Positions 8,231 to 64,000 of a DNA stretch of 64,000 nucleotides are shown here, piece by piece; within the stretch, counting starts at the first letter, position 1; each line of letters opens with the position of its first letter. The position numbers were made by a program, and so were the translations under genes. The DNA comes from Phyllosticta citribraziliensis (lineage: Eukaryota), in the NCBI RefSeq assembly GCF_038025025.1, contig NW_027117340.1, positions 806,001 through 870,000 of the forward strand, written 5' to 3'. Below the pieces are notes generated by a model. That model was given only the letters and a program-made list of their open reading frames with translations. It ran no database searches and was not told the DNA's origin.

Positions 8231-8369
8231 AAGAAGAAGGGAAAAGGAAGGAAGTAAAGGGTAGAAAGTAAAGAAGAGGGAAGTAGGGGATAAGTAGTAA
8301 AAAGGAGAGACTAGAGAGTAGAAGTTAAGGTTAATAGTATTTATATAAGGGTAGATAGTAAACTAATTA

Positions 8370-13880: not shown

Positions 13881-13968
13881 TACATAACATTACTTAGGTT
13901 AAATATTATAATACCTTTATAGGTGAAGAAGTAGGATAGAGCTAAAACTTAAAATAATCTTTTATATC

Positions 13969-32659: not shown

Positions 32660-33460
32660 CTTAACTATTATTATATAAGGTAGCTTCTTCCTACTCCTCC
32701 TATTCCTCTTATATATTATCCTAGTTAGCTAATATATAATCTATCTAATTCTATATTATAGCCTAATTATATAGATTAAGGAATATATCTATATAAATCT
32801 TATTACTATACCTCCTATACTAAGTAGGTAGCTTTATACCCTATAAGTTACTAATAGTATAGTTAAGGTTATCTATACCCTAGATATAGTTAGTATAGTA
32901 GCCCTATAAGAAACTAGGTAGGTAAGGTAGTAATAGCTAATAAATATATAAGTATTAGTATTATTATAATACTTAGTATACTAGATAAGAAAAGTATTAT
33001 ATAAGCTAGTATAAGTTTATATAGATAAGTAGTTAAAGTTCTAAGCTAAAACTATAATATATAAATAAGGTAGGCTATCTCCTAGAGCTAAAATATATCT
33101 AGTATACTCTTATACTTTATAGCTACCTAAGTAAGCCTATACTAGTTAGTTAAGATATCCTTATATTAGTAAGGAATACTTACCTATATAATACTCTCTA
33201 TATTCTCTTAAGGCACCTAAAGTACCTATTTAAAGTTCTACTTAATAGGCTCCTTATTAGAACTAACTAGTAATATAGTAATATAGATCTTACTATTATT
33301 ACTATTATATAAACTAATAGGTACTAAGTACTTAGCTATAGGGACCTAATAAGCTATAGGATTATAGTAATAGTATATATAAATAGGCTCCTTATCTTCT
33401 TTATCTAAAATAGGCTATATAATAGTAAAGTAATAATAATATAGTATAATAATAGGTAAA
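32660..33460 (-). pseudogene. Antisense accessory ORF relic of A' with DUF3716-like Cys motif (~32855-33000)
   Basis: De-RIP PGFLQGRCANCIWGMDNLDCTI. Carries a ~27-bp deletion relative to family A. Confidence 0.55.
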
Positions 33461-34668: not shown

Positions 34669-34708
34669 AGCCCGAACCTATAAAATAAGAAACTTATAAG
34701 TTATAACA
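34669..34708 (+). repeat. Terminal 40 bp of another A'-type LTR
   Basis: agcccgaacctataaaataagaaacttataagttataaca repeats 34629-34668 with several differences. Confidence 0.75.
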
Positions 34709-35009
34709 CTTATAATCTTACTAACTAGCCTTATCTAAGGCTATAGACTATAAAAATAATAATACCTAGAGCTTCTAGTATATCTAAAGATATAGTATTT
34801 TATCCTAATACTATATAGGGTATAATTAAAATAAGAAAACTTATTAGTAAGAGATTAATAATAAGTCTTATCCTCTTATAAGTAGTAAGAGACCTATTAA
34901 TAGTATTATAGTACCTAGTATGGTACTACTAGTCGGCACCGTTTTTACGGCTCTAGAATGTTATTTTTAGCATCATTATTCCCGTTCCTAATGGTGATTT
35001 TAGCTCTAA

Positions 35010-35336
35010 TATAAGTAGGAGATTAGGCTAGTATAATAATAGGATAATAGATAGCTCTAGAATCTTAGAAAATTATAGTTCTATATAGTCTAGTAGTAAT
35101 AATAATAGCTAATAAAAGTATAGGTAAACTTAGCATCTTTAGTAGTAATAGGAGGTCTTATATTATTAGTATTTTTAGTAGTAGATTAGCTAGTTATATA
35201 CCTCCTTTTATAGCTACTTATAAAGAGGTACTACTTATATAAATAAAGTCTTTTATACCTAGTTAAACTATTATTTATAGTATACTTAGTTATTTATTTA
35301 TTTATACTTATTATTTATACCTAAGTCTTTATTATA
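35010..35336 (+). repeat. Possible 5' LTR of a further element G (internal part 35337-35670, interrupted by F)
   Basis: RIP-compatible TG/CA ends (tataag...ttata), TATA-like tatataaataaa near 35237, followed by ggttgg. No partner LTR in the window. Confidence 0.3.
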
Positions 35337-35670
35337 GGTTGGCTAAAAACCTATAATTATATTAAATACTACTTAGTATTAAGTACTAGGTATACCTATA
35401 CTATAACTACTAGCTATAGCTATAAGCTATATATACTAAAGTTACCTAACTCCCTAAGAGTCTTAGCTACTTAGATAACTTAACCTTAGTACTTATATAT
35501 ATAATACTAATATAATAATAGAAATAAGAATAGAGCCTCCTATACCTATAGTAGGGACTTAATTAAGTAGTTAGTTTTAAAAAATATATTACTATTACTA
35601 AGCTAGTAATCTATTATATAATATAGAATTAAAATAAGGTCTTAATCTCTTATAGTACCTATCTTCCTTC

Positions 35671-35916
35671 TATTATAATACCTAAGGTAAGTTAGGTAAT
35701 AGAATATAAAAGGATCTTATTATATAAATACTATAGATAATTATCTTTTTTTTCTTATAATTAATACTTCTAAGTAGACTTATTACTAATTTAACTTCTA
35801 TCTTATTTATATACCCTTCTTACTTAGCTTTATCTCCTATACTTATATACTTTAGTACTAGGTAAATAGTTACTTAGAACTAGTCTATTAATTAGGTAAT
35901 TTATTAGCTTATAATA
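35671..35916 (+). repeat. 5' LTR of element F (~246 bp)
   Basis: tattataata...cttataata (RIPed TGTCA...TGACA), followed by gaaaaataaagatt, analogous to the family-A LTR/PBS junction. Partner LTR not in the window. Confidence 0.65.
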
Positions 35917-36079
35917 GAAAAATAAAGATTATTAAGTTACTATATCTTTCCTTATATTATTTCTCCTAATATCTAGAAAGGTCTAAAATATCCCCTACTA
36001 AAAATACTAGGTATATATTCTAGAAATATTATCTATATTAGTTAATTAAGTACTATTCTAAGTCTTATAGTATAAGTAC

Positions 36080-37621
36080 TAATAGATACCCCTATAAGTC
36101 TAGAGGACCCCTAGGTATATAGCTAGAGCTACTTTATATAAAGAGAATATAAATAGTCTCTTACTCTAAACCCCTATAAGTAATAAGGTTATATTATATA
36201 AATTAGACTAAGTTAAGAACTAGTTAAATATAGCTAATCTAGGATCTAGTTATAAAGATAGAGTAATAAGATTAATTTCTATAGCTCCCCTAAACCCTTC
36301 TATATAGATAGAAGAAAACCCTAATAATCCTTCTCTAGAACTAGAAGAGAATCTTATCCTTTTATCTTATATCTATTAAGTTAGCTTATTAAACCTAAAG
36401 TTACTTAAGGTAGTAATAGAATAGGGACCTTATAAAGAAGTTATTTCTAAGCTATTTTATAGACTCCTAGGATTTAAGGAGGCTATTAAAAGCTAGTATA
36501 ATAAGACCTATAAGGCTAAAATTATTAAAATACTCTTTAATAAGAAATACTAAATAGTTATTATAGAAGGAGTAATCTCTTACTATAGATAGTTTATAGA
36601 CTACTATAAGAATAAGATTCTAGTAATTCTACTAGTCTATATAATAGATAAGATTACTAAGGAATAAACTACCTAGGAATAGTTATTCTATAAGGAAACT
36701 ATATTCTTCTATAAATTAATTTATATAACTATAAGCTAGCCTATCTAGAAGTACTATATTAAGATCTCTAATCTATCTCTCCTTATAGATAGAAAAGTAC
36801 TAAAGTACTAGGTCTAGCTCTACTAAGTTAAGAATAAAATTTATACTAATTATAATTAATTTATCTTAGATAATCTTATAGATACTAAGGTAGTAATTAT
36901 AGTATATATTATATCTAGGATTAATAGTAAAGTAGTAGATTACCTTCTTTCCTTTCTTAATATTAAAGAAAAGAAAGAATTACTAGTTATAGATACTAAT
37001 TTATATACCTTTCTTAGGGATAAGTTTAATAACCCTTTTAAAAGAAAGGAAGCTAAGAATAGCCTTTAATACCTCTACTTCTATATAAGTAATAATTTCT
37101 AATTATATATTATTAAATTTACTACCTTAGCCCTTAATATAGATCTACCTTAGTTCTAATAGAAGGAAGAGTTTTATACCTCTTTAAATCCTTAATTAAA
37201 GATATATATAATACTCTATAAGGATAATAAGTATATTAAATTCTAGGATTATATTAATAAGGTATCTATTATTATATATAATCTAAAGGACTATTAAGCC
37301 TTATATATATAAGTAAGTAAGTCTAAGGTAAAATAATAATAGGAAGAATTTTTTAAGAAAAAGGTTAATATTAGCTTAAGTACCCCTAAGAAACTTAGAT
37401 ATACTAGGACTACCTTATATACTATTAAGCCTAAGGAATCTAAGAAGTCTATTAATAGTAGTAAAAAGGATACCTACTATAATTATAAAAAGAAAGAATA
37501 TTAGGTATATAACTATATAGTCTCTATTAAGGAAATTAATATATAATTTAAGGAAGAAGAGCTTATACTAGAATTGAAAGAATTCTTTAAAAGTAGTAAC
37601 TTAAAAAACTCCCTTCTCTAA
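36080..37621 (+). pseudogene. gag relic of element F
   Basis: De-RIP CYNCxKxGHWxxxC knuckle at ~37476-37517. Ends near AAAAAAC at 37603-37609. Start approximate. Confidence 0.75.
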
Positions 37622-40600
37622 ATTCTAGGCCTATCTTAGAGATAATAATTAGGTCCCTCTAGTTTAAAGGTACTAATATTAGAATTAATAATTTTATAGG
37701 AGGCTAAGCCTTTACTATATCTATTAAGATTTATAAAAATAGGAAAGCTCTTTATATTAAAGTACTAGTTAATACTAGTACTCTTAGAATTTATTTTATT
37801 TATCTTTAACTTACCTAATACCTTAATATACTTAGTATATATAAATATAAGATTATTAGGGGTATATTTAAAGCCTTAGGATTTAATAGATAAGTAGCTA
37901 CTAAATTAAAGTATATTTATTTCCTTACTATTACTTTTAACTAAAAAATATAAAAAATATAGGCCTTTATTATAATAATTAGCTATAATAATCTTATACT
38001 TAGGAAATATTTCTTTACTTAGAATAACCTCTTACTAGATTATAAAAAATATAAGCTTCTTAGCTAAGATAATAAGGCCCTACCTATATATAAAAAAATA
38101 TTTCCCCTTATCTACTTAGTAGTATACTAATAAGGAAAAATCTTAGAAATATATTAAAAAGATCTAGAAAGAAGAGAAAAAATCTAAAAAGATATAGAGG
38201 AGAAAGTAGTTAATTAATAGACTAACTTCTTACTTATTTCTTTAAACTCTCTTTTTATATAAGATAAAACTACTAAAGTCTAAGTTATTACTCTCTAGGA
38301 AGTTAATATAAGAATTTAAGAACTTACTTTACTCTAAGAAGATAAAGAAACTTTATAACTTCTTAAAGAATACCTTCTACCTTAGTATAAGGAATATTAG
38401 GATATCTTTTCTAAATAATAGTCTAATATCCTACCCTTATACTAGCTAGGTTTTAATTATAAAATTACTATTAATAGAAATAAACCTTTTTCTCTCCCTC
38501 TAAGCCCCTTATATAGAATAATAATAGAATAATTATAAGTTATAAAGAATTATATCCTTAAGAATCTTAAAAAAGGCTTTATAGTTAAAAGTACTATACT
38601 ATATATATTACTAATTCTTATAGTTTAAAAAGGAAGTAGTAAGTAGAGATTCTATATTAACTACTAGTAGCTAAATATATATACTAAGAAAGATTTATAC
38701 CCTCTATCTCTTATCTAAGAAATTCTCTAAAGAATTACTAAGGGTAAAGTATATATTAAGTTAGATATCTAATAGACTTTCTACTAAATTCTTATAAATC
38801 TAGAATTCTAGGATCTAATAATCTTCTTTATATAATATAGATATTTTAAATATACTATACTCCCCTTTAAACTCTATAATAGTCCTACCTTATTTTAGTA
38901 ATTTATTAATAAAGAACTTATACTATACCTAGATAATTTTATTATTATTTTTATAGATAACTTACTTATTATCTCTAAAGACCCTTAAGAATATAAGTAG
39001 TAAGTTAAGAAGGTACTTAAATAATTATAAGAAGCTAATTTATAGGTAGATATTAAGAAATCTAAATTTTTTATTACTTATATAAAGTTTTTAGGATATA
39101 TTATCTCTATTAATAGGATTTCTATAGATCTAGATAAGATATATACTATACATAAATAGAACTTATTAATAACCCTTAAAGGACTTTAAGCCTTCCTTAG
39201 GTTTTATAATTTCTACTAGAACTTTATCCTTAAATATAATAGAATAGCTAGGCCTCTAGAGAAACTCTACTCTAAATAGAAATTCTATATCCTTAATAAC
39301 TTTAAAATCTAGATATTCTAATAACTAAAGAGGATAATAACTAGCTCCTTAGTAATAATATATTATAATTCTAAGGTACTTACCTATATAGAAATAGATA
39401 TAAGTAATAGAGTAGTAGCTAAAGTTCTATTATAATATTAAGAAATTAAAAAATAAAGGCCTATAACTTTCTATTCTAAGTTAATATTAGATATAGAACT
39501 CTAATATAAAATCTATAATAAAGAGTTCCTTATAATTATATATAGATTTAAGGAATAGAGAAGTATACTCCTAGGCCTATATTAGCCTTTTACAGCTATT
39601 ATTAATTACTAGGTACTAAAGTACTTCTCTACTAAATATTTACTTAATACTTAATAAGCCTAATAGTTAGAGAAACTTATAGAATATTATATATAATTTA
39701 TATATAGGCCTAGGAAAGATAATATTATTACTAATACCCTTACTTAAAAATAGGAAGAGTTATAAATCTAGAAGAATAAGAGTATTACTAGGTATATAAT
39801 ATAACTTATAGCTAAAAACTAGATCCTTAACCTAAATATCCTTAATATTACTTTTAATAGCTTATTCCTAATCCTAGAGAGAATACTAGAAGTAAATAGA
39901 ATATCTAGTATATTAGAAGAATAGTATATATAAGCTTATAAACCTAATAAGAAGGACTAAACCCTCTATAATAACTACCTCTTCTATAAGGAGTACCTTA
40001 TAGTCCCTAAATAAGATATCTTATATATAGAGCTAGTAAATAAAATCTACTTATTACTACTCCTTATATATACTAGATAAAATAAGACTTAGAAAGTAGT
40101 TAGAAGGTACTACTACTAGTTAGGTATTATCTCCTATTATATATACTAGAGAAATATAAACTTTTATAATAAGAAGCTAGGATTACTCTAACCTCTCTTT
40201 ATCCTAGACTAAGTCTAGTAATATATTACTATAGACTTTAAGAAGATATCTAAGGATAAATCTAGGTATAATACTATTCTTATATTTATAGATTAACTAA
40301 ATAAGTAAACCTTTAGCCTTCCCTATTATAAATTAATTAATACTAAGGGTATTATATAACTATACTACTAGTTTATTTAGAGAATATATAGTATATCTAA
40401 ATTAGTAGTCTCTAATTAAGGACCTTAGTTTATTTTAGATTTTTAGAATAAGCTATATATAATTATTAGTATTAAATAGAAACTTATCTTAGTCTACTAC
40501 TCCTAGATAAATAATACTACTAAAGTTATAAACTAGGTTATTAATCCATATCTATAACTATATATTAACTATTTCTAGGATAATTAGGTAGAAAGGCTTC

Positions 40601-41490
40601 TAGTATTAGACTTTATATAAATAATACTCCTATATAAATCTATAGGTATATCCCCCTATAAGTTAATCTTTAATTACTATCTTAGCTTTTTATTTAATTA
40701 GGAGAAATATACTATATATCTAAAATCTATAAAGAAGCTATCTTATACTACTATATAGAAATTTACTAAGTATATATAAGAAGCTATATAGTAGGCTAAG
40801 TAATAACTAAGTCTTATCTAAGGATAAATAATATAAGCTATAAACTAATTCTACTAGGAACTAGATTTTAAAGAAGGTAATAAGGTATATATCTTAGTAT
40901 AAGATATAAGTACTAATAGGCTAAGTACTAAGCTTAATACTTAGAACTAAGGTCTCTATTATATTATTAAGAAAAAGGGATACTCCTATAAGCTAGAATT
41001 CCTAGTATATACTAAGATTATAAACCTCTTCTATATAAACTACTTATAGAAGGCTTATTCCCCTCTATTAGGCTAGATTTCTATCCTTAAACCTCTAATA
41101 GTCTACTAGAACTAGGAAGAGTATAAAGTTAACTTTATATATAATAGTAAGGTAGAATAAGGTACCCTAAAATACTAAGTATAGTAGAAAGGATATAACT
41201 AAGATAATACTTAGTATAAGGCCCTAGATATAGTTAGTATCCTTAATTAAATTAAGAAGTACTATATTAAGTTTCCTTAATTAAATTAAGAAGTACTATA
41301 CTAAGTTTCCTAAGGTACTAGGACTACTAAAGTACTTATAAGACTAAAAGGATATAGTAGTATATAAACTAGATTATAAAGGTACTATAAAGAATAATAA
41401 GTCTATTCTCTAAATAGCTAACTAAAATTAAACTCTTTAATACTAATAAAAAAAAAGGAAGCCCTCTAAAACCTATTAAATACTAAGTAA
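37603..41490 (+). pseudogene. pol relic of element F (protease, RT, RNase H, integrase, chromodomain)
   Basis: De-RIP LVDTGA (~37765-37782), FxDD (38950-38961), HxQTDG integrase motif (~40495-40520), EEYEV chromodomain (~41116-41270). Confidence 0.85.
41241..41310 (+). repeat. 34-bp tandem duplication at the end of the F chromodomain
   Basis: ccttaattaaattaagaagtactata(t/c)taagttt occurs twice in tandem. Confidence 0.9.
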
Positions 41491-41499
41491 ATAGACTAT

Positions 41500-42900
41500 T
41501 AAGGCTCCTCCTTCTATAAACCCTCTACCTTAGACTAATAGGTAAGGGCCTTAGCCTAAAGTTAATTACCTAGACTATATAGTAATAGAGGTATATCCTA
41601 ATAGTTAGTAAAGATATTATTATTAAAACTACCTATTAGGGAACTATAAGGAGTAATAGGACTATATATAATCTAGGTATAGATATAGGTATAGGTAGGT
41701 ATTATAAAAATAGGTAATAATAATAATAATAGAGATAAAAAGGATATCTTAAAATTAGAAATCTATAGTAGAGTAATAATAGAAGAATTAAAAATAGGTA
41801 GAGAAGTTAATATATACTAGACTAAGTAGACTAATATTACTACTATTAGATTTATTAAATAAAGATAATATACTAGATAAAGAAGAACTAGTAGAAGAAG
41901 AAGGGCTAAATTTTCTAAATAAGAAAGAAGGACCTAGCTTACTAGAAGGGATATATTTACTAGGTATAGATAAGGATAAAGAAGAGTAGACTATTAAAGA
42001 GACTCTTAGAACTATATAAATAGAGAGTTTAATAGGTATATATAGAATTATTACCTTTTACTCTAAAAGGGTAGTACTACCTAGTAAAGAAGTAGTAGAA
42101 ATAGGACTAATAGATAGGGTACCTAGTATATAGATAAATAAAGATATATTATTAGAAGGACTAATAGGGCTAGCCTTAGTCTCTTTAGATAAAGAAGTAC
42201 TAATATCTAATATAGACTTATTCTTTAAGAATAGACTACTAAGACTAGCTATAAAGTTATCTAAATAATTAGGGACTTTATCTAAGGGATTATACTAGCT
42301 ATTATAAATATAGTTATCTAGATTATATATACTATAAGAGGAAGTACTATTATTCTATTTATAGTTACTATAGCTACTATTAAAGGAACTAGGAATCTAG
42401 TAATAATTAATAAATAGATAATAGATACTATTAGGTAGCTTAATATATATATAGTACTTATAGCTAATACTTTATAGAATATTAGTAAATTAGATAGCTA
42501 TAATAGAGGCCTAAGAATAATAATAGTATAGGTTATTTATAGAAACTAAAAGAATAGTAAGAATACTAGTATAGTTATAAGGTAAGAATAAGAGCTCTTT
42601 ATATATATTATAGACTATATTACTACTAGGAGACTATAATACTATTAGTATAAAAGTTAAAGGCTAAGGAGAAGCTAGATTACTTATCCTACTTAAGATA
42701 ACCTAAATCTTAGCTAAGTATAGGATATATATACTACTCTTATTAAACCTATAAGGCCTAGGTAAAGGTAGACCTAAAGAATCTCTATTAAAACCCTTAG
42801 AACTAGGCTCTTCCTTATCTCTCTCTTTTTATATAGGTAAAGGATAATTATAATAGTAAAGGTAATAAGATAAAGGTAAATAATTAAAAGGACTAATAAT
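41500..42900 (-). pseudogene. Antisense accessory ORF relic of element F with DUF3716-like Cys motif (42331-42498) and Ser-rich tail
   Basis: De-RIP AIQFT...CxxC...PFIDCRRIPGSFNGSCGNCKWNDSASSCS in one frame. ORF boundaries approximate. Confidence 0.62.
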
Positions 42901-43511
42901 TAGATTAGTAGAATTATATCTATATAGATAATAGGAAGGGCTAATATTAGGACTAGAATATTTAGACTAATAGGCCTAAGGATAATAATAAGTAGTAGAA
43001 GAGGTATTATTAAAAAGAGTAATATTATTATATAGTATAATATATATAGATATAGTAATAGAATATATAGAAGTATATATAGAATTAATAGTATTAGGAT
43101 AATAATTAGAAGTAGATATTAATAGATATAAGGGTATAAATTCTAAGAAGTTATTAAAGAATCTATTACTACTAGCTATATAAGTTATTAATACTAAATA
43201 TCCTAATCTTAAGGATAAGGCTTTACTTACCTAGTAAACTACTATCTATATTATTAGACTAACTAGAACTACTAGAATCTATAGGATAATTAATTAGGGT
43301 AAAGCTAATTATAGTAAAGACCTTAGATTATAGATTAGTTAAAATTATATTATAAGCTAAGGGTAAACTTACTAAAGAAGATAAAAGATAGGGTATAATA
43401 AGTATAGTAATAAAGATTAAAGCTAGAGGTAAGAATAAAAAGTCTTTATACTAGACTTATATCTATTAGTATAGCTATAGATATACCTATTAAAATACCT
43501 ACTCTAGTATT

Positions 43512-43934
43512 TGTCATGATAGGCGTACACGCGCCTATATAAGTACCAGGGCCAGCACAGATAAACCTGGCGTCGCGCGGTTATAGGAAGTACAAGCCTC
43601 ACCTCAGGCAGCAGCCTACTATAGCTCAGGCTAAAACCTATAGGCTAGCACTAGCCACTACAGCCTAGTACCAGCTACTACAGCCTTAGGAAGATACCAT
43701 ATAATAGCCTATTAATACCTCACCTTTATAACTCACCTAATAATAACTAAGGACCCTTATATAAAGGATAAGAGGTAGAATAGTATAAAGAAAGGACTAG
43801 GAAATATATAGGTAGTAAGTATCTTTTATATTTTATTCTTTTAACTTATTAGATTTAATTAAGATATATATATATTCTCTAGTAGTTTACCTTTAGCCCT
43901 TACCTATATAATAAGAAATCTATAAGTTATAATA
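43512..43934 (+). repeat. 5' LTR of A3 (423 bp)
   Basis: Reverse-complement match to the other A LTRs. Followed by the PBS gatataaaagat. Confidence 0.94.
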
Positions 43935-43946
43935 GATATAAAAGAT
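43935..43946 (+). promoter_or_regulatory. Self-priming-type PBS of family A
   Basis: atataaaagat (43936-43946) is the exact reverse complement of atcttttatat (43821-43831) inside the LTR. Confidence 0.65.
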
Positions 43947-46377
43947 TATTCTAAGTTTTAGCTCCATCCTATTTCTTTACCTATAAAGGTGTTATAATAT
44001 TTAACCTAAGTAATATTATATATAGCTACAGTCTTATATAAGACCGCTTATTACTTTTCCCTAGTAAACCTAAGTTATCTTTATTAGGCGCATCAGTATT
44101 ATCTAAGGACTAAGGAGCATTAAGCATATATTAACTATAGAAGTCTTTAGTTAAGGCTATAGGGTAGTATATAAATATTTAGGAGGTATCCTATCTATAA
44201 CCTACTTAAGGGACATTCTAAGTAGAAGACTATAAAGATAGTATAGCTAAGAATAAAGCTAATATATCTAGTACTACTAAAGGTATTAGTACTAGTCAAT
44301 TAACTTAACAAGATTTATGTAAAGGCACTAAAGATTCATATAATACTAGATACTTATTAAATAATAATAAGAGAGGACCTACCCCTATTCTCCTATATAA
44401 TTTCTACTTAGTCCTAGCAGTAGAGGTAAAAGAATATACCCAAGACCTAGGGTTAACTTATACAGTTTAAGCTCTAGTTATAGAGGTATTTATAAAGGTA
44501 CTATACTCAGATATTAATTAATTTAAATCTCAGATTACATCCTTAAATAAGTCTTAAGTACAGCAGCAACTAAACTATACATAAAGGTAAAACTAGGCTC
44601 TTAAGTAAATACTCTTAAACTACACTAATAGGCTTAGGGAAGTTCTAAGGGAAGGACATATTAGGCCCTCTTTATTATCTTAGCACCTAAGACCTATTAC
44701 CCTCTCTTAAAATCCTCCTACCTATATAAGGGAAACTACTACTAAAACCTCTACTTTATCTTTAAGTAATAAGAAATACTAAAGTAGTAAGGTTCCTAAT
44801 CCTCCTCTTCTTACTAATAGAGAAGACCCCTTATATAAATACTAGACCCTCCTTATATAAAATAAAATTAAATAAAACTATAATTACTTTACTAAGGATA
44901 CAGTAGAGGAGACTAAATAGAATATTATAGGTTATATTATTTCCTATATTAGTAGAGAAGTCTTATATTACCTAACTCCTTTCCTTACTTCTTATATAAA
45001 GGCTAATAAAGTTACTCTAGATAAGGATATCTTTAAATTCCTAGATAACCTCCTCTAGAGTCTATATAAATATAAGGATATAAAGAAGCAGTTATACTCT
45101 CTTATATACTATATTCCTATAGACCTTTAGAAGTTTTAATTAAACTTTATATAATTAGCCTTAGATATAGATCTTCCCTAAGAATAGTAGAAAGAGGACT
45201 TTTATAATATAATAGATCCTCTCCTTTAAACCTATATAGTTACTATAGAGTAAGATAAGGATATTAACTTTTATAAGTACCTCTAATAAGCCTACCCTAT
45301 TACTTAAAGTCTTAGTAACTACTATTCTAACTATAGAAAACTAATACTCACGTCGCGTAAGGATTAAGTAAAGAAGAGATAATAAGAATAAGTAAAGATA
45401 ACTACCTTAGGTAGTATAAGTACTTTATCTTCTAGTTATACCTAGGCATGATCTATATCTAGGGCTCCCTTATATAATATAACCTATAAAGGTAAAGTAG
45501 AAGTCTATATAGAGATTAGACTATATAATTACTATAGCTAGTTTAGCTATTTATAGAGATAATACCTATAACTAGAGATAAAGGCAATAGAGTTAGTAGA
45601 AGAAGAAAGTACTAAAGATATCTATATAAATAAAGGAGATTAGTCTTTATTAGAAAATAATAAGACCTAGGTAAAGTCTCCTACTATAGGTCTAAACTTA
45701 GAGTAATATATATTAAGGGTTCTTATATAAATCTTAGTTACTTTATTAGAGGTATACCCTTTACTATATAAACCTTAATTGTATCTAATAGCTGCGCCTT
45801 AGAAATTTGTGCCCTAGCTAATACTAGTACTAGTAGTATAAGTTTTATTTACTTTAAGCTACTACTAACTCTCTAGTCTATAGGTGCTGTAAAAAAGAGA
45901 ATAATAGGTAAGGGGCTTAATATTACTAGGTTTAACTAATATATAAATAAGAAAGTTAATTTTTACTTTTATCTTTAACTCTATTTCTAAGATTAAATGG
46001 TTTCTACTTATACTTTTATTTATAATATTGGCTGTAATAATATAATTCTTAGGTGATAGTTTTTTAACTAGTATAATATTCTCCTAGACTATAAATGATA
46101 TAAACTAGTCTAGAGATAGCTACTAGTTAACTAGTCCTTTTAGCATCTTCTATACCTACTAAAAATCTCTATGTAAAGTAAAGAACTGTAGAAAAAATAC
46201 TAAGTAGATATAGACTATAGAGATAAAAAATTTAATAAATACCTCCTTCCCTTAGTATAGGTTATTAAGGGAATGGAATTCTAAACTTAAGATATATTTA
46301 AGCTTTCTATTTATAAAATATAAGTTATACTAATAGAGATCTATACTATTAACCTTATATAAGTTTAAGTAGCTCTT

Positions 46378-46800
46378 TATTATGACTTGCAGATTTCTCG
46401 TTATATAGGTAAGGGCTAAAGGTAAACTACTAGAGAATATATATATGTCTTAATTAAATCTAATAAGTTAAAAGAATAAAATATAAAAGATACTTACTAC
46501 CTATATATTTCCTAGTCCTTCCTTTATACTATTCTACCTCTTGTCCTTTGCATAAGGGTCCTTAGTTATTATTGGGTGAGTTATAAAGGTAAGGTATTAA
46601 TAGGCTGTTACGTGGTATCTGCCTAGGGCTATAGTGGCTAGTGCCAGGCTGTAGTAGCTAGTGCCAGCCTGCAGGTTTTGGCCTAAGCTACAGCGGGCTG
46701 CTACCTGAGGTGAGGCTTGTACTTCTTATAACTATATAATGCTAGGTTTATCTATACTGGCCCTGGTACTTATATAGGCATGTATATGCCTATTATGACA
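46378..46800 (-). repeat. 3' LTR of A4 (423 bp)
   Basis: Ends TATGACA, followed by tgccccccctaa (PPT on minus). Confidence 0.95.
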
Positions 46801-47639
46801 TGCCCCCCCTAAAGAGAAGCTAAAATTGTGGGAATTAGTAGCTATAGGTGCTTATATAGGCATAGACTTATAATATATAATAGTAGTAATTTAGTAATTT
46901 AAGCGTTCTATATAGTTATAAAGTATAATTATTAGTCTAGGTCTACTACTATACCATCTCTTTCTATTACTATTTCTTTTACTGCGCGACCTATAGAAGG
47001 TCACCATCTTACTTAGCTATATCTAAAGCTCCCTATTAAAGTATATTATTACCCCAGTCTAATTTAGCCATAATCTAGTAAACTAACTGTCACGCATAAA
47101 GGTTCTAATAATTTAAATAATTTATACCCTACTAATAGTAAAGCAGACATTCCTAGCTACTATATACTTAATATGTCTACTACTCATTATAGTCTAGTCT
47201 ATTAGGACTTATTACTATTATATAAGAGTTATAGTATTAAGTTATTATCGCGCAGTGTTATTCGTGATCTATTATAGTTACTACTTGCTTAGAGAGCTAT
47301 TTTAGCTAGTAGTATCTATAAGGACTATTATATAGAGTTCTAAGGTAAGTAAACTTTAATTCTATCTCTTTAGACTATTACTAATTATTATCCAGGCTAA
47401 TAAGTAGTATTATATATTTAGGTTTTACCGCTTTATCATCCCATCTTACTAACTAATATAATTATAGAGGAGGATACTCATATAAAGACTTAGTCAGGCT
47501 AGGCTTTACTTATTTAGCTAGGAATAGCTACAGGCTTATTACTTTACCTATAGTATACTATAGTGTCAGGTTCTACTTAATTAGCATTATTAGTTATTGC
47601 GCGAGGTTTGTCATCTGCAGCTGTATAGCCTGCTACTAA

Positions 47640-48460
47640 CCAGTATATTATACTATATTACTGCCAGTTTACTGTCGCGCAGCCTGTTTTAGAGGAAGAA
47701 GGTAAAGAGCCTACTTATATATACTATTATTATAATCCTATAGCTTGTTAGGTTCTAGCAGCTAAGTACTTACTACCTGCTGCTTTATATAATAGTAGTA
47801 ACAGTAAGATTCGCGTTATGGCGTTGCTAGTTAGCTCTAACAAGGTGCCTATTAAGTAGGACTTTAAGTTAATGCTTTATATTCCTTATAAGAATATAGA
47901 GAGTGTCGCGCGAGTAAGTTTATCTTACTAATATAAGGGATTCTTATCTGACTAACTATATAGGTATGCCTTAGTAGTTCTAAAGCGTAAGAGCGCGCTA
48001 AATACATCTTAGCCTTAAGTAACAGCATGCCTTGCTTATATATTATAGTTTCTGCTTAATAATTTAACTACTTATTAGTTAAAACTTAAGCCAGCTCGCG
48101 CGATGCTTTTCTTATCTAGTATACTAGAATTAATAACCCTATTAGCTATACTAAGTATTATAATAATACTAACCCTTACATATTTATTAGTTGTCGCTAC
48201 CTACCTGGTTTCTTATAGGGCCGCTGCGCCAACTGCCTTTAGGGTATAGGCAACTTAGACTACACTATTAGTAACTTAAAGGGTGCTAAGCTGCCTGCTT
48301 ATTATAAGAGGTATAAAGATAAAATTCATATAGAGGAGTTCTAGAACTTATACTATTAAGCTAGGGTAGAGGATTAAACTAATTAGGCTTTAGCTAAGTA
48401 GGACATCCTGCCTAATAAGCTAGAGGATCTAGAGGAGACTATCTTATATAATAATAGTTA
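47640..48460 (+). pseudogene. Antisense accessory ORF relic of A4 with DUF3716-like Cys motif (48102-48270)
   Basis: Unmutated codons ggc cgc tgc gcc aac tgc ctt (GRCANCL, 48219-48239), in frame with gat gct ttt ctt atc (DAFLI, 48102-48116). Confidence 0.65.
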
Positions 48461-48589
48461 TAATAAGAAGAAGGGAAAAGGAAGGAAGTAAAAGAAGGAA
48501 TAGTAAGAAATAAGTAATAAAAAGGAGAGACTAGAGAGTAGGAGTTAAGATTAATAGTATTTATATAAGGGTAGATAGTAAATTAATCA

Positions 48590-51500
48590 GTCTACTTTCT
48601 ATATCTTTATAATATTTACTATAGGTCTAAGTGACTTATTTTATTATTACTTTCTCTTTTAATCTAGGGTTCTTCTTAAAGGAAGGTAGTTTTCTATTTT
48701 TCTAGATTTTTTAGTAGTCCTGCTATAGTAGGGTGTAATAAGTAGAATTCTTTAATTTTCTATAGTGCGCTGCTAAAAGAACTTATATTATACTACTAGT
48801 TATCTTAGTCATATCTAGTCTATTTAACTTAGTATTAAAGCTTCCTATATAAGACTTAACTAGCTTAAATATAGTCTACTTCCTACTTAGGCTCGTCTTA
48901 AATAATCTTAGGTTCAGGTTTAGTATATTCCTAACTAGGAAGCTATTCTATTTCAGCCTTATATAGCCTATTAGTATAGAAAAGGTTGACCATCTTTATA
49001 TATAAGGGAAGATTAAGGATATAGGAGGGTCCTTCTATTCCTATAATCTTAAAAGGTCTAGTATTAGGAAAGTCTAATTTAAGGTTTAGCTAATTAGTAG
49101 ACCATCCTATTTTCTTAATATAGATATAATCTCTAACTATAAAGTCTAGCGCGCGACGGTATTTATTAGCTTATTAGTATATACACTCTTAGGATTTAAG
49201 AATAAGATTCTTTATAAATTTAAAAGCTTCTTATCTTCTCTTTTATAGTATTTATGCTACCGTGCGAGCTATTTTCTCTAGTTACTAGGGGGTTTCGGTT
49301 CTTTATTACTAGTTATAGTATAATTAAGGGGAATATCCTAACTTAATCTTAAAAGGTAAAAGTCTAGTAGCTTTATAGGGAAGTGTTACTTGTGTAAGGT
49401 CTATTAATAGTAGAAGATCAGACTAATTATTCTAAAAGTAATTAATAAAAGGTCTTAATCTTTATATAAGATGCTAATTAACAATCTCTATAATACTATT
49501 AGTCTAAGAGTAGTAGGATGAGTTAAAATGCTGCTCTATACTAGTTAGCTTATATAGTTTATTTATAAACGCTGAGATGAACTGAGGGCCTTAGTTAGAT
49601 AGGATAGACTTAGGGTTTCTATAAATATAGTAGATATATTTATAAAAGAGCCTAGAGACTCCTTTAGTATTAATCTTCTTTATATAAGGCAAGCTAAAGG
49701 TTCTTTAACTTAACTAGTCTATAATAACTAGAATTGTATTATAGCCTTTTTAGTCTTTAGGCATCTCTTTAAAATCTATAGCTAGGTATTACTAGGGTCA
49801 AGTAGGAATCTCTAGGGGTTATAGAAGGCCTAGGTCTTTATTATAAAACTCTTTTATTTAGCAGCAAATATGGCATCCTTACCTATAAATATCAATCGTG
49901 TGATTTATAGCTGGCTAATAGTAATGTCGCTTAAGGAGTTTTCGCATCTTTATAATACTAGAATAGGCGGTTATATAGGTAGTATATAAAGTATTAAGTA
50001 TTCTTGCATGGAGGTTATTGTGATCTAGTATAAAGAGGGTGCTATATTATAGTAAAAGACTATCTTTTAGTTCCTAACTATTTCTTTATTTAAGGTCTTT
50101 TAAGAGGGCTTTCTATCTCTAGAGTTCTAATTTAGAATCTTCCTAGTTCGCGTAGAGGAGTTTATCTAAAAATAATACTAGAGGAGGAAGTTCTTATTCT
50201 AAAATAGAAAGAGGGATAATAGTCTCTAGTAGGATAAGGCATATCTCTTATACGGCCCTTGCTTTTTCTTTTTAAGTCTTTAGGTCTTCTTATTTTTAAG
50301 TAAGGTAATTAGTAATGATATTTTCCTTTCCTAGTTAATAGGAGAATCGTACGTAGAATTCTATAAAAAACTTAGACTATCTAGCTTGTTATTAATTAAG
50401 TTGTCGTTTAGTAGAGTAGTACTTTAATACCTAATAGTCTGTAATTATAAGAAAAGGTTTTTTAAGGCTAATAAGTATTAGTCTCTATTCTTCTAGTCTA
50501 TTCTTAATAGCCAGCAGTTCTTTATCTAAAATTCTATAATAAAGTTCTGCATCTACTATTGCCTTAGAGTAGAAGGCTACTAGTTTCTAATTATATAAAG
50601 GTTATTAGAGCTGCATTAAAACGCCTGTAGTAACTCTATTACTTATATTAGTCTCTATATAAGTGTTAAGAGTAGGGTCATAGTTAGCTAGGAGTGCGTC
50701 ACTATATATTAGCTTCTTAAGTTACTAAATTGCCTCTTCTTCTAGGGGTCCTAGTTATTACTATTTTGCCTTAGAGTATAGTTTCTCTAATAGTCGGCTA
50801 ATTCATCTATAGTTAGGGAGAAATCGTCGGTAGAAATTATAGAAACCTAGGAAGGATTAAAGAGCTTTAAGGGTTTTTAGTATTAGCTAGTTTTATATAG
50901 GTTCTACCTTATCTGGGTCTATTTAAATGCCTTCTATAGAAATGATATATCTAAGAAACTTTATATGAGTAACTAAAAACTCGCTCTTCTTTAAATCTAC
51001 CTGTAGTCCTGCTTTTTATAGTCTTGCTAGTACTTTTTTTACTTGTTCCTCGTGCTCTGTAGGGTTTTTAGAGATAATAAGCATGTTATCTATAAAAGCT
51101 ATAATAAAGTTATCTAAATACTTAAAGAGAACCTGGTTAATAAAACATTAAAAGGCTGCTAGTCTGTTACTTAATCTAAAAGGTAAGACACGGTATTTAA
51201 ATAACCTGTATCTTATATAGAAAGTGGTTTTGTCTTTAGAATCCTTAGTAAGATGGATGTAGTAGAAAGCTTATTAAATATTAAGCTTGGTGTAAATCTT
51301 GCCCTTTCTAATACGCTAAAGTAACTCTATAATAAGAGGGAGGGGGTGCGAATCCTTAGTAGTTTATTTATTAAGCTGTTAGTAGTCTATATAAAATCTC
51401 CATCCCCTACTAGGCTTTTTTACTACTAGAATAGGAGAAGCGTAGGTAGTAAAGCTTTTAGTAATAAAGCCTTTCTAAATATTCTTAATGATATACTCTT

Positions 51501-54100
51501 TTATAGCCTTAAGCTGTTCTAGAGATATTCTATAGAGAGGGCTAGGTGGAAGCTCTAGTAGACTATTATATATAAGAGATATTTTATAATCAACTCCTGT
51601 GTGATATGGTAGTAGCTTGTTAGACTCTATTTTAGAAAACACATCTTAAAATTCCTTATAAGTAGCTAGTAGCTTAGAAGCTAATAATTCCTTAGTTTCT
51701 TTATCTTTAAGAGCTGCTTAAACTTGTATAAGGTTAATAGTATAGATCTCTATTAGCGCAACTTGTATTTTATAGATAGAAAGCTTAAAAGCATTTTAAG
51801 TTTAAAATTCAATTCCCTTAATAACCTATACTAAGGGAAGAAGGTGTTTATTAAAGTTTTTATCTCTATAGTCTATATCTACTTAATGTTCTTTCTGCAG
51901 TTTATTACTTTACATAGAGACTTTTAGTAGGCGTAAAAGATACTAAAAGGATTAGTTAACTAGTAGCTATCTCTAGACTAGTTTACATCGTTTATAGTCT
52001 AGAAGAACATTATGCTGGTTAAAAAACTATTACCTAAGAATCATGTTATTACAGCTAATATTATAAATAAAAGCATAAGTAGAAACCATTTAATCTTAGA
52101 AATAGAGTTAAAGATAAAAGTAAAAATTAACTTTCTTATTTATGCGTCGGTTAAACCTAGTAATATTAAGCCCTTTACCTATTATTCTCTTTTTTATAGC
52201 ACCTATAGACTGGAGAGTCAGTAGTAGCTTAGGGTAAATAAAACTTATACTACTAGTGCTAGTATTAGCTAGGGCATGAATTTCTAAGGCACGGCTATTA
52301 GATATAATTAAGGTTTATATAGTAAAGGGTACACCTCTAATAAAGTAACTAAGATTTATATAAGAACCTTTAATGTATATTGCTCTAAGTTTAGACCTAA
52401 GGCAGGAGACTTTACCTAGGCCTTATTATTTTCTAATAAAGACTGATCTCCTTTATTTATATAGACATCTTTAGCACTTTCTTCTTTAACTAACTCTATT
52501 GCCTTTATCTCTAGTTGTAGGCATTGTCTCTATAAATAGCTAAACTGGCTGTAGTAATTACACGGTCTAATCTCTATATAGACTTCTACTTTGCCTTTAT
52601 AGGTTGTATTATATAAGGGAGCCCTAGATATAGATCGCGCCTAAGTATAACTAGAAGATAAAGTACTTATACTGCCTAAGGCAGTTATCTTTACTTGTTC
52701 TTATTATCTCTTCTTTACTTAATCCTTATACGACGTGAGTGTTAGTTTTCCGCGATTAGAATAGTAGTTACTAAGACTTTAAGTAATAGGGTAGGCTTAT
52801 TAGAGGTACTTATAAAAGTTAATATCCTTATCTTACTCTATAGTGACCATATAGGTTTAAAGGAGAGGATCTATTATATTATAAAAGTCCTCTTTCTACT
52901 ATTCCTAGGAAAGATCTGTATCTAAGGCTAATTATATAAAGTTTAATTAAAACTTCTAAAGGTCTATAGGAATATAGTATATAAGAGAGCGTAACTACTT
53001 CTTTATATCCTTATATTTATATAGACTCTAGAGGAGGTTATCTAGGAATTTAAAGATGTCCTTATCTAGAGTGACTTTATTAGCCTTTATATAAGAAGTA
53101 AGAAAAGGAGTTAGGTGATATGAGACTTCTCTACTAATATAGGAAATAATATAACCTATAATGTTCTATTTAGTCTCCTCTGCTGTATCCTTAGTAAAGT
53201 GATCATGGTTTTATTTGATTTTATTTTATATAAGGAGGGTCTAGTATTTATATAAGGGGTCTTTTCTATTAGTGAGAAGAGGAGGATTAGGAACCTTACT
53301 ACTTTAGTATTTCTTACTACTTAAAGATAAAGTAGAGGTTTTAGTAGTAGTTTCCCTTATATAGGTTAGAGGAGGTCTGAGAGTCCTTATTACTCTACTA
53401 GTAGAAGGATCTTAAGAGAGGGTAATAGGTCTTAGGTACTAAGCTAATAAAGAGGGCCTAATATATCCTTCCCTTAAGGCTTCCCTTAGTCTATTAGCAT
53501 AGTTTAAGAGTATTTACTTAAGAGCCTAGTTCTGCCTTTGCGCGCGGTTTAGTTGCTACTGCACTTAAGACTTGTTTAAGGATGCAATCTTAGATTTAAA
53601 TTAATTAATATCTAAGCGTGGTACCTTTATAAACGCCTCTATGACTAGAGCTTAAACAGTATAAGTTGACCCTAGGTCTTAGGTATATTCTTTTACCTCT
53701 ACTACTAGGACTAAGTAGAAATTATATAGGAGAATAGGGATAGGTCCTCTCTTATTATTATTTAATAAGTATCTAGTATTACGCGAATCTTTAGTCTCTT
53801 TACGCGAATCTTGTCAAGTTGATTAACTAGTACTAACACCTTTAGTAGTACTAGATATATCAGCTTTATTCTTAGCCATACTGTCTTTATAGTCTTCTAC
53901 TTAGAATGTTCTTTAAGTAGGTTATAGATAGGACACCTCCTAAATATTTATACACTGCCCTATAGCCTTAATTAAAGACTTCTATAGTTAATACGTGCTT
54001 AATGCTCCTTAGTCCTTAGATAACACTGATGCGCCTAATAAAGATAACTTAGGTTTACTAGGGAAAAGTAATAAGCGGTCTTATATAAGACTATAGCTAT
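48590..54100 (-). pseudogene. RIP-inactivated gag-pol of A4
   Basis: Same motif order as A2. CCHC at ~52520-52567, DTG at ~52258-52268, FxDD at ~51085-51097. Confidence 0.9.
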
Positions 54101-54187
54101 ATATAATGTTACTTAGGTTGAATATTATAATACCTTTATAGGTAAAGAAGTAGGATAGAGCTGAAACTTAGAATAATCTTTTATATC

Positions 54188-54610
54188 TATTACAACTTAT
54201 AGATTTCTTATTATATAGGTAAGGGCTAAAGGTAAACTGCTAGAGAATATATATATATCTTAATTAAATCTAATAAGTTAAAAGAATAAAATATAAAAGA
54301 TACTTACTACCTATATATTTCCTGGTCCTTCCTTTATACTATTCTACCTCTTATCCTTTATATAAGGGTCCTTAGTTATTATTAGGTAAGTTGTAAAGGT
54401 GAGGTGTTAATAGGCTGTTGCGTGGTATCTGCCTAGGGCTGTAGTGGCTGGTGCCAGGCTGTAGTGGCTGGTACTAGCCTGCAGGTTTCAGCCTAAGCTG
54501 TAGCGGGCTGCTGCCTAAGGTGAGGCTTGTGCTTCTTATAACCGCATGATGCTAGGTTTGTCTGTGCTGGCCCTAGTACTTATATAGGCGCGTATATGCC
54601 TATCGTGACA
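54188..54610 (-). repeat. 5' LTR of A4 (423 bp)
   Basis: Ends CGTGACA, followed by TSD CTCTT. Confidence 0.95.
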
Positions 54611-57381
54611 CTCTTAAAGATAAGGAAACTAAGGAATTACTAGCTTCTAAGCTACTAGCTACTTATAAGGAATTTTAAGATATATTTTCTAAAATAGAGT
54701 CTAATAAGCTACTACTATATTATATAGGGGTTAATTATAAAATATCTCTTATATATAATAGTCTACTAGAGCTTCTACTAAGTCCTCTCTATAGAATATC
54801 TCTAGAGCAGCTTAAGGCTGTAAAAGAGTATATTATTAAGAATATTTAGAAAGGCTTTATTACTAAAAGCTTTACTACCTATACTTCTCCTATTCTAGTA
54901 GTAAAAAAGCCTAGTAGGGGATAGAGATTCTATATAGACTACTAATAGCTTAATAAATAAACTGCTAAGGATTTATACCCCCTCCCTCTTATTATAGAGT
55001 TACTTTAGCGCATTAGAAAGGGCAAGATTTATACTAAGCTTAATATTTAATAAGCTTTCTACTATATTTATCTTACTAAGGATTCTAAAGATAAGACTAC
55101 CTTCTATATAAGATATAGCTTATTTAAATACTATATCTTACTATTTAGATTAAGTAACAGACCTATAGCCTTTTAATATTTTATTAACCAGGTTCTCTTT
55201 AAGTATTTAGATGATTTTATTATGGCTTTTATAGATAATATACTTATTATCTCTAAAGACCCTATAGAGTATAAGGAATAAGTAAAAAAAGTACTAGTAA
55301 GACTATAAAAAGTAGGACTATAGGTAGATTTAAAGAAGAGTAAGTTTTTAGTTACTTATATAAAGTTTCTTAGATATATTATTTCTACAGAAGGTATTTA
55401 AATAGACCTAGATAAGGTGGAACCTATATAAAACTAGCTAATACTAAAAACCCTTAAAGCTCTTTAATCCTTCCTAGGTTTCTATAATTTCTACTAATAA
55501 TTTCTCCTTAATTATAGATAAATTAGCTGGCTATTAGAGAAACTATACTCTAAGGTAAAATAGTAATAACTAAGACCCCTAGAAGAAGAGGTAATTTAAT
55601 AACTTAAGAAGCTAATATATAGTAATGTACTTCTAGCTAACTATAACCCTACTCTTAATACTTATATAGAGACTAATATAAGTAATAGAGTTACTGCTAG
55701 TATCTTGACACAGCTCTAGTAACCTTTATATAATTAGAAACTAGTAGTATTCTACTCTAAGGTAATAGTGGATGTAGAACTTTATTATAGAATTTTAGAT
55801 AAAGAACTACTAGCTATTAAGAATAGACTAGAAGAATAGAGACTAATACTTATTAGCCTTAAAAAACCTTTTCTTATAATTATAGACTATTAGGTATTAG
55901 AGTACTACTCTACTAAATAACAACTTAATTAATAATAAGCTAGATGGTCTAAGTTTTTTATAGAGTTCTATATATAATTCTCCTATTAACTAGGAAAGGA
56001 AAATATTATCACTAATTACCTTACTTAAAAATAAGAAGATTTAAAGACTTAGAAAGAAAAAGTAAAGGCTATATAAGAGATATACCTTATCCTACTAGAG
56101 ACTATTATCCCTCTTTCTATTTTAGAATAAGAACTTCCTCCTCTAGTATTATTTTTAGATAAACTCCTCTATATAAACTAGGAAGATTCTAAATTAGAAC
56201 TCTAGAGATAGAAAGCCCTCTTAAAAGACCTTAAATAAAGAAATAGTTAGGAACTAAAAGATGGTCTTTTACTATAATATAGTACCCTCTTTATACCAGA
56301 TTATAATAACCTCTATATAAGAATACTTAATACTTTATATACTACCTATATAACTGCCTATTCTAGTATTATAAAGATATAAAAACTCCTTAAGTAATAT
56401 TACTACTAGCTAGCTATAAATTATATAGTTAATATTTATAGGTGAGGATACTATATTTACCGCTAAATAAAGGAGTTTTATAATAAAGACCTAGGCCTTC
56501 TATAACCCCTAGAGATTCCTACTCAACCCTAGTAATACTTAGCTATAGATTTTAAAGAGATGCCTAAGGACTAAAAAGGCTATAATATAATTCTAGTTAT
56601 TATAGACTAGTTAAGTTAAAGAACCTTTAGCTTACCTTATATAAAGAAGATTAATACTAAAGGAGTCTCTAAGCTTTTTTATAAATATATCTACTATATT
56701 TATAGAAACCCTAAGTCTATCCTATCTAACTAAGGCCCTTAGTTCATCTTAGCATTTATAAATAAACTATATAAGCTAACTAGTATAGAGCAGCATTTTA
56801 ACTCATCCTACTACTCTTAAACTAATAGTATTATAGAGATTATTAATCAGTATCTTATATAAAGATTAAGACCTTTTATTAATTACTTTTAAAATAATTA
56901 GTCTAATCTTCTACTATTAATAGACCTCATACAAGTAACACTTCTCTATAAAGCTACTAGACTTTTACCTTTTAAGATTAAGTTAGGATATTCCCCTTAA
57001 ATACACTATAACTAGTAATAAAGAACTAAGACCCCCTAGTAACTAGAGAAGATAGCTTATATAGTAGCATAAATATTATAAAAGAGAAGATAAGAAGCTT
57101 TTAAATTTATAAAGAATCTTATTCTTAAATCCTAAGAGTATATATACTAATAAGCTAATAAATACCGTTACGCACTAGACTTTATAGTTAGAGATTATAT
57201 CTATATTAAGAAAATAGGATAGTCTACTAATTAGCTAAACCTTAAATTAGACTTTCCTAATACTAGACCTTTTAAGATTATAGGAATAGAAGGATCCTCC
57301 TATATCCTTAATCTTCTCTTATATATAAAGATAGTTAACCTTTTCTATACTAATAGGCTATATAAGGCTAAAATAGAATAG
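54611..57381 (+). pseudogene. Family A copy A3, segment 2 (RT, RNase H, integrase)
   Basis: Resumes exactly where 46377 stops (compare the uninterrupted 60241-60260). Interrupted again by A5 just before the chromodomain. Confidence 0.92.
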
Positions 57382-63800: not shown

Positions 63801-64000
63801 GTATTATTATAATACTTAGTATAGCTAATAGGGTTATTAATTCTAGTATACTAGATAAGAAAAGCATCGCGTAAGCTAGCTTAAGTTTTAACTAATAAGT
63901 AGTTAAATTACTAAGTAGAAACTATAATATATAAGTAAGGTATGCTATTACCTAAGGCCAAGATATACTTAGTACGCTCTTATACTTTAGAACTACTAAG
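57382..64000 (+). mobile_element. Family A copy A5 (5' LTR, gag-pol, start of the antisense ORF region; truncated by the window end)
   Basis: LTR at 57382-57804. De-RIP DTG at 59690-59698 and FxDD at 60860-60871. Chromodomain at ~63065-63230. Cys motif on minus at ~63702-63868. Left flank AATAG is the predicted TSD. Confidence 0.93.

Follow-up and report, generated by a model that had tools for sequence, protein, structure and literature searches.

Family A, a family of long terminal repeat (LTR) retrotransposons of the Ty3/gypsy type, is present as heavily mutated copies in a 64,000-nucleotide stretch of the Phyllosticta citribraziliensis genome (contig NW_027117340.1, positions 806,001 to 870,000; referred to here as the window). 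Sequence comparison suggests, with a probability of roughly 0.7, that family A and its diverged form A', and probably also a second family, C, once had a third gene located between the stop codon of pol and the polypurine tract (PPT), antisense to gag-pol. What remains in the window is a gene fossil. In the copy A4 it occupies about 47392-48491 of the plus strand, between the minus-strand pol stop and the PPT-like run that abuts the 3' LTR. The predicted product has about 260-350 amino acids; its second exon would encode a domain of the DUF3716 type with seven Cys positions, followed by a basic, Lys-rich tail. We know of no function assigned to DUF3716.

The window is AT-rich, with a GC content of 22-33% per kb, and repeat copies differ from one another overwhelmingly by C/T and G/A changes, which is the mark of fungal repeat-induced point mutation (RIP); the direction is C-to-T/G-to-A and the mutation is heavy. 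Compared with itself, the window is a mosaic in which family A is represented by at least seven copies or fragments; two of them, A2 and A4, are full-length, with LTRs of 423-445 bp (Table 1). A4 is 8.2 kb long and is bounded by 423-bp direct repeats that are 90% identical. In a six-frame Pfam scan of A4 with stops read as X, a single minus-strand frame matches RVT_1 (3e-20), RT_RNaseH (1.6e-14), RT_RNaseH_2, and Integrase_H2C2 (0.012), and the other five frames have no match; the domain order reverse transcriptase (RT)-RNase H-integrase, together with the LTR pair, is that of a Ty3/gypsy element. Protease, integrase core, and chromodomain were missed by the same scan. The last ~60 residues of pol, for which Pfam makes no report, we take by eye to be chromodomain-like. 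The G7 polypurine run is conserved in A2 and A'. Measured from the pol stop at 48694-48696 to the G7 run at 46803-46810, the spacer that holds the putative antisense gene is about 1.88 kb long, and not ~1.7 kb as put forward in an earlier reading made from the letters of the window (the sequence-only reading).

On the A4 plus strand, opposite pol, frame 47964+3k reads ..DAFLI*YTRINNPISYTKYY..FISCRYLPGFL*GRCANCL*GIGNLDYT.. (asterisks are stops), with CRYLPGFL*GRCANCL*G at 48192-48245 and GRCANCL at 48219-48239, just where the sequence-only reading had placed it. The same motif, as had also been claimed, is present in A2, A5, and A', in the same frame; the A' version carries a 5-nucleotide (nt) frameshift and a 27-nt in-frame deletion, and the cysteines that are retained differ from copy to copy. 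Expressed as a degenerate DNA pattern (C-x3-PGF-x2-G-x-CANC, up to three mismatches), the motif has two matches in the window and none in 100 shuffles.

Stop codons cannot decide the coding status of DNA in this condition, and signals that RIP cannot create were therefore used; RIP makes no transversions. The frame of pol itself has 189 stops in 1971 codons in A4, and a five-copy consensus corrected for RIP (de-RIP consensus) still has 50 stops in 613 pol codons, 10 in 174 codons of the putative exon 1, and 12 in 176 codons of the putative exon 2. Counts of stops and of TGA tell nothing here, since they do not favour the frame of pol over the other frames. Between the A copies and A', transversions are distributed 12/2/37 over codon positions 1/2/3 in pol, which serves as the control, and 11/17/37 in the two exons together (chi-square p=1.9e-4; third-position excess p=8e-5), with 3/8/16 in exon 1 (p=0.008) and 8/9/21 in exon 2 (p=0.016); the codon-position bias that the sequence-only reading looked for at sites not affected by RIP is present. 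Periodicity in the spacer has two phases: ~47400-47880 fits the plus frame 47392+3k and ~48000-48600 fits the motif frame, with the change falling between about 47880 and 48000.

A candidate intron of canonical fungal type (GTAAGT..GACTAAC..TATATAG) is located at the point of this phase switch. Its length of 50 nt (2 mod 3) and its phase (0) are such that it starts after a full exon 1 codon and ends before a full codon of the motif frame. Counterparts are found in A2 (7680-7729, 50 nt) and in A', where the length of 47 nt is also 2 mod 3; a regular expression for the intron has four matches in the 128 kb of both window strands, and three of these are the introns of A2, A4, and A'. Indels between A4 and A' measure 18, 6, 12, 6, and 12 nt in exon 1, 3 nt in the intron, and 27 and 5 nt in exon 2, so that six of the seven exon indels are multiples of three, versus 2 of 11 in 46801-47389 (Fisher p=0.013). 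Among the six frames, the chosen plus-strand frames are the richest in synonymous transversions (8/25 in exon 1, 8/35 in exon 2). Together, periodicity, indels, and intron indicate a two-exon gene on the antisense strand. The coding signal begins near 47392, upstream of the start at 47640 given in the sequence-only reading; the convergently oriented third gene that it proposed is supported by the 3-periodic transversions, the multiple-of-3 indels, the phase-0 antisense intron, and recurrence in family C (see below).

Table 1. Positions in the window of the family A and family C features considered here.
Feature	Position	Strand	Evidence and remarks
Putative exon 1	47392-47913	plus	periodicity, indels all multiples of 3; 5' limit uncertain
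Intron, 50 nt, phase 0	47914-47963	plus	joins exon 1 frame to motif frame
Putative exon 2, ends KKKGKGRK-stop	47964-48491	plus	periodicity; A' has 27-nt in-frame deletion and 5-nt frameshift
DUF3716-like Cys-rich domain (AFLI*..Y-x2-YY..C-x3-PGF-x2-G-x-CANC-x8-Y/C)	48105-48263	plus	
First pol stop after chromodomain-like C-terminal end	48694-48696	minus	translations
PPT-like run (A G7 on sense strand) abutting 3' LTR	46803-46810	minus	read from sequence
A4 3' LTR	46378-46800	minus	423-bp repeat, also at 54188-54610 and in other copies
A4, full-length family A copy, RIP-degraded	46378-54610	gag-pol minus	direct repeats and Pfam
A2, full-length family A copy	6182-14416		
A2 exon 2 homologue	7730-8257	plus	motif 7958-8029, intron 7680-7729
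A5, family A copy, inverted, cut by window end	64000-57382		
A5 exon 2 homologue, cut by window end just after intron	63479-64000	minus	motif 63778-63707
A', diverged copy	34668-30572		78-79% identical
A' homologue	32856-33183	minus	47-nt intron 33183-33137, motif about 32930-32856
Element C, second gypsy family	34669-43511	pol plus	RT about 38635-39106; GC about 22-25%, very RIPed
Cys-position pattern as Tyr, in element C	42334-42462	minus	antisense, about 1 kb downstream of element C pol

The assignment of the motif to DUF3716 (PF12511) in the sequence-only reading stands in part: the Cys-rich motif resembles verified DUF3716 proteins in hhalign and BLASTP comparisons, but no copy has a Pfam match. 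Metagenome contigs scanned with the A4 motif as a degenerate DNA pattern yielded five matching loci. Two of the five, L002 and L004, lie in long open frames, and both are DUF3716 proteins by Pfam (1.2e-11 and 9.3e-7, respectively) in which the motif falls in the C-terminal half of the domain. The other three belong to no Pfam family and match by chance, and two of these are one identical sequence with in-frame stops. P0002 and P0003, the only close relatives that a protein search seeded with L002 gave, are also DUF3716 proteins and complete a comparison set of four sequences, effectively two. The four window copies align with this set in hhalign at a probability of 73.8% (E 2.9e-5, 29 columns), A4 matches L004 in BLASTP (34.3 bits, E 6e-7, 20/61 identical), A2 matches L002 (E 7e-4), and a local DUF3716 hidden Markov model scores 17-18 bits on raw A4 and 25 bits on the de-RIP consensus; these scores are partly circular, as the set was fetched with A4's own pattern and 11 matching residues are there by construction.

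Outside the pattern, the sequences agree in an A-x6-G/R that stands upstream of the Cys positions, in Y-x2-YY at the site of the family's C-x-CC, in an F located three residues before Cys 4, and in the final Cys at +9. The four verified members have the Cys pattern C-x(1-2)-CC-x(9-21)-C-x10-C-x2-C-x(8-10)-C with G-x-C-A-N-C, and the spacing C-x-CC..C-x3-PGF-x2-G-x-CANC..C of L002 and L004 is common to the window motif. The window copies follow the pattern in that positions 4-7 are each Cys in at least one copy (4, 5, and 6 in A4; 4, 5, and 7 in A2), and the C4-C5-C6-C7 spacing is the same as in L004; up to four of the seven Cys positions are Tyr in each copy, and Gln and Trp codons read as stops. 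As a RIP-aware scan with the N-terminal half alone does not rise above background (see below), the domain is called DUF3716-like here, a candidate member of the family. A PDB search with the DUF3716 alignment gave no match, and the AlphaFold model of the L002 domain (mean pLDDT 45.8) is too poor for a fold search. On the L002 contig (3847 nt), the DUF3716 open reading frame (ORF) adjoins an ORF of ~206 amino acids without transposon features. This neighbour looks, by eye, like an NAD-binding enzyme; if so, L002 would be an example of a host-type DUF3716 gene that is not part of a transposable element. A single match of the motif among viral contigs was a chance match with in-frame stops.

Element C, which lies between A' on its left and an inverted family A fragment on its right, belongs to a second gypsy family whose pol is 41% identical to that of A4 as read; an LTR pair was looked for in element C and was not found. 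Since the plus strand carries the RT and RNase H of element C, the locus at 42462-42334 is antisense to pol and downstream of it. This locus reads YKYY-x15-Y-x3-P-x6-Y-x-N-Y-x8-Y, with Tyr at every DUF3716 Cys position, including the exact C-x-CC of the family. A RIP-aware six-frame scan for the C-terminal half of the domain scores A5 at 52.5, A2 at 51.5, A4 at 51.1, the element C locus (ending 42322) at 49.3, and A' at 45.8, with unrelated loci at 42.2 or below. The pattern [CY]-x3-P-x6-[CY]-x-N-[CY]-x8-10-[CY], defined from family A and the DUF3716 proteins only, matches four loci in six frames (A2, A4, A5, and element C) and none in 30 codon shuffles. A purine/pyrimidine-coded codon alignment of A with C scores 150, which lies within the range of shuffles (these average 126, with sd 7.5, and reach 152), and has mismatches of 35/49/39 over the codon positions. 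In blastn the A and C spacers give noisy 60% matches in both orientations, one of which is collinear (48007-48214 to 42587-42383). Family C probably once carried a third gene of this kind. The antisense frame of element C is unusually open, with 3 stops in ~190 codons after the motif and 10 in 302 (42606-41700).

A number of results tell against a third gene with a DUF3716-type product. Pfam searches for DUF3716 at E values up to 10 found no match in A4, A2, A5, A', or the family C locus; the input was the raw copies with X at stops, the gathering score of PF12511 is 22 bits, and the sensitivity of Pfam is reduced here because protease, integrase core, and chromodomain were also missed in A4. 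The hmmscan-type check proposed with the sequence-only reading likewise has no match on the copies as they stand. Profile searches with an alignment of the four window copies, at near and longer lengths, found no relative among 5.8 + 1.84 billion proteins at E values up to 10; the sole match among the 1.84 billion representatives, a tetratricopeptide repeat (TPR) protein, is spurious, 'ANCL.GIGNL' being matched seven times. Besides the circularity of the comparison scores, only the C-terminal half of the DUF3716 domain aligns, Cys positions 1-3 are TAT Tyr in all copies (one RIP step from TGT), and a RIP-aware scan with the N-terminal half alone is not above window background, 12 other loci scoring 41.6-47.4. 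BLASTP of A4 against element C finds the same alignment at a non-significant level (E=1.1, 15/36 identical).

The substitutions themselves reveal weak constraint on the putative antisense gene, far below that on pol: of the codons with a transversion, a share of 0.23-0.32 is synonymous, versus 0.63 in pol (32/51), a transversion excess at four-fold codons was not found in the spacer, and the exon transversion rate (0.052-0.072 per site) is no lower than that of the upstream spacer (0.063). In exon 1 it is codon position 1, and not position 2, that varies least. Minus-strand frames with the same third position are nearly equal to the plus frames (6/26 and 7/34 synonymous); because substitutions alone barely separate plus from minus, the strand call rests on the intron and the motif. 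A start codon common to the copies was not found: an ATG equivalent to about 47650 survives only in A2, and A' does not share the Met at 48027.

Three other explanations were considered. The best of them, itself improbable, is that a host DUF3716 gene with its intron was captured in the 3' internal region of an ancestral element and was carried as a passenger with no role in retrotransposition. DUF3716 does occur as an ordinary host gene, with the L002 contig, where the gene is beside ORFs not belonging to transposable elements, as one example and Fusarium PSC58 as another in the available part of its report (PMC10776026); the antisense gene evolves about twice as fast as pol, under weak constraint, and the retained intron fits capture from genomic DNA. 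Yet the coding signatures persisted across the A/A' split, and the pattern recurs in the same place and orientation in family C despite the divergence of its pol, which speaks for prolonged maintenance by selection in the elements. An intron in antisense orientation, moreover, is the very feature by which a retroelement can keep a gene.

A less likely explanation still is that there is no gene, the Cys motif being a chance string in a RIP-scrambled non-coding spacer and the periodicity a product of alignment artefacts or repeats. This would agree with the missing Pfam match and database relative, the many stops left after de-RIP, and the background-level RIP-aware score of the N-terminal half. 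It is opposed by the combined periodicity (p=2e-4), by the confinement of multiple-of-3 indels to the proposed exons, by an intron of the right length and phase where the periodicity switches phase, and by the absence of the motif pattern from 100 shuffles; the family C match is independent, and a shorter pattern run on 596 Gb of prokaryote contigs gave 13 matches, none DUF3716-like by eye (no Pfam search was run on them). The stops carry little weight, pol keeping 50 in 613 codons after the same correction.

Finally, it is very improbable that the signal in 47392-47913 is a sense-strand ORF downstream of pol (env-like or ORF3-type), with only the short Cys region, or nothing, on the antisense strand: the minus frame with the same third position is nearly as good (6 versus 8 synonymous transversions) and the least variable site of exon 1 would be codon position 2 of that frame (3/8/16 read backwards), but an unexplained frameshift would be needed at 47914-47963, which cannot be a minus-strand intron because it reads CT..AC on that strand, the Cys motif is readable only on the plus strand, and the minus frames carry more stops (18-23 versus 11 in 174 codons), a weak point as pol is not singled out by stops either.

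Under the preferred explanation, a third gene belonging to the element, an antisense promoter in the 0.6 kb beside the 3' LTR, or in the LTR itself, would drive an mRNA convergent with pol. The intron would be spliceable only from the antisense RNA and would be retained in sense genomic RNA, which is why the gene could survive reverse transcription. The product, which would have a Lys-rich tail, may be a zinc-binding accessory factor that binds nucleic acid or chromatin and influences how the element itself is expressed or integrated. In addition, the sense transcript may be damped by the antisense RNA. From the PPT to exon 1, the 0.6 kb at 46801-47391 has a mild third-position excess in the exon 1 frame (8/10/19, p=0.06) and indels that are not multiples of 3; this segment could hold an upstream exon or an antisense promoter and 5' untranslated region. 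A2 has lost 51 nt of this upstream spacer (equivalent to 47019-47069); it also has a 4-nt deletion, at a position corresponding to 47818, by which its exon 1 would be put out of frame.

Antisense genes near a 3' LTR have precedents. HBZ of human T-cell leukaemia virus type 1 (HTLV-1) is an antisense retroviral gene driven from the 3' LTR that encodes a basic leucine zipper (bZIP) factor. Like the putative family A gene, HBZ is a convergent antisense accessory gene near the 3' LTR and may be spliced, but it comes from an animal retrovirus, encodes a bZIP protein, and has no sequence relation to the family A gene, which leaves an analogy only. An HTLV antisense promoter is mentioned in the accessible portion of one review of antisense ORFs (PMC7264820).

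The closest precedent in fungi is Boty of Botrytis and Sclerotinia, for which the accessible portions of three papers (PMC8365987, PMC7264820, PMC4227169) describe brtn, a gene in antisense orientation located between pol and the 3' LTR; they cite Zhao 2011, Virology 417:248, as the original report. The gag-pol of Boty is described with a CHROMO domain (PMC4227169), and brtn is stated to be absent from the current B05.10 annotation (PMC8365987). The antisense layout is thus already known in outline because brtn has been described, and the premise of the sequence-only reading that gag and pol are all that fungal Ty3/gypsy elements encode is, by these accounts of Boty-like chromoviruses, too strong. 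Boty as there described and family A are both fungal Ty3/gypsy elements with an extra antisense gene between pol and 3' LTR; they differ in that the family A element is larger and every copy of it is RIP-dead, and the likeness considered here is one of layout.

Plant elements can carry an antisense ORF in the same place, termed aORF-3R; the examples given in the accessible text of PMC7264820 are Grande gene23, RIRE2, Retand ORF4, and PvRetro13 ORF2, located between pol and the 3' LTR, and gene23 is reported there to have its own promoter upstream of the ORF and to encode a nuclear protein. The family A gene is like these aORF-3R in position, strand, and coding conservation among copies, and the gene23 promoter and nuclear protein match the mechanism proposed above for family A. 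The plant genes differ in their hosts and in their proteins, which are unrelated (SMC-like, transposase_28) and, in so far as that text describes them, include none with DUF3716; expression has been shown for some.

DUF3716 itself has been tied to a mobile element of another class. According to the available part of PMC8232023, the REP9 IS3EU DNA transposon of Zymoseptoria tritici holds two DUF3716 genes, REP9-1 and REP9-2. REP9 and family A are alike in that a mobile element bears a DUF3716-type domain; REP9 belongs to class II (DNA transposons), whereas the family A gene is antisense in a retroelement, predicted to be spliced, and, as read, below the Pfam threshold. A Fusarium DUF3716 protein is termed an orthologue of NCU05718, a protein of Neurospora that binds telomeric sequence, in the corresponding part of PMC10776026. 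No link between DUF3716 and an LTR retrotransposon was found in the available portions of the DUF3716 literature examined, where a further mention of PF12511 says nothing on function. Within that literature the domain assignment and the intron are new details, and the layout is already described.

Besides its earlier link to a DNA transposon, DUF3716 may now be connected with an accessory gene that at least two diverged families of LTR retrotransposons share. If true, this would suggest that the domain plays a part in the biology of transposons, for instance in targeting, regulation, or counter-silencing, and would offer a concrete handle on it. A broader and rather doubtful interpretation is that DUF3716 is at root a mobile-element domain, a zinc-binding accessory for DNA or chromatin targeting in class I (perhaps brtn) and class II (REP9/IS3EU) elements. 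Host DUF3716 genes, such as that for the Neurospora telomeric-sequence-binding protein, might on the same tentative grounds be domesticated copies or else the source of repeated captures, and it is a speculative extension that the antisense, intron-bearing layout is a general way in which fungal retroelements keep such a gene. The analysis also makes coding potential readable from RIP-destroyed repeats, in that transversion periodicity, indel lengths, and intron phase outlast RIP, and it concerns a type of gene missed by standard annotation. The value of the finding is moderate because the copies are dead and the general layout has been described before.

All family A copies in the window are dead, inactivated by RIP. 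Contigs from four DNA sequencing runs contained only short RIP-type variants and no un-RIPed copy, and of 69 pattern matches of pol to viral contigs none was confirmed. Just past the antisense stop, in a purine-rich stretch, A4 lacks 14 nt (48494) that A2 and A5 have; this is a deletion private to A4, because relative to A4 contigs of other public DNA runs have insertions there too. The remnant of a third, distant gypsy pol is located at 26174-27472 on the minus strand and is 33% identical to A4 pol over 442 amino acids (tblastn); no strong RIP-aware DUF3716 match lies near it, the remnant itself not having been examined for an antisense gene. Truncated or inverted family A fragments directly abut the full copies (1-3612, 5560-6177, 43496-46377, and 54611-57381), and the last base of one inverted gag-side fragment, 46377, directly precedes the A4 LTR; such an arrangement suggests that insertions were nested or that copies recombined with one another within an isochore made up of repeats alone.

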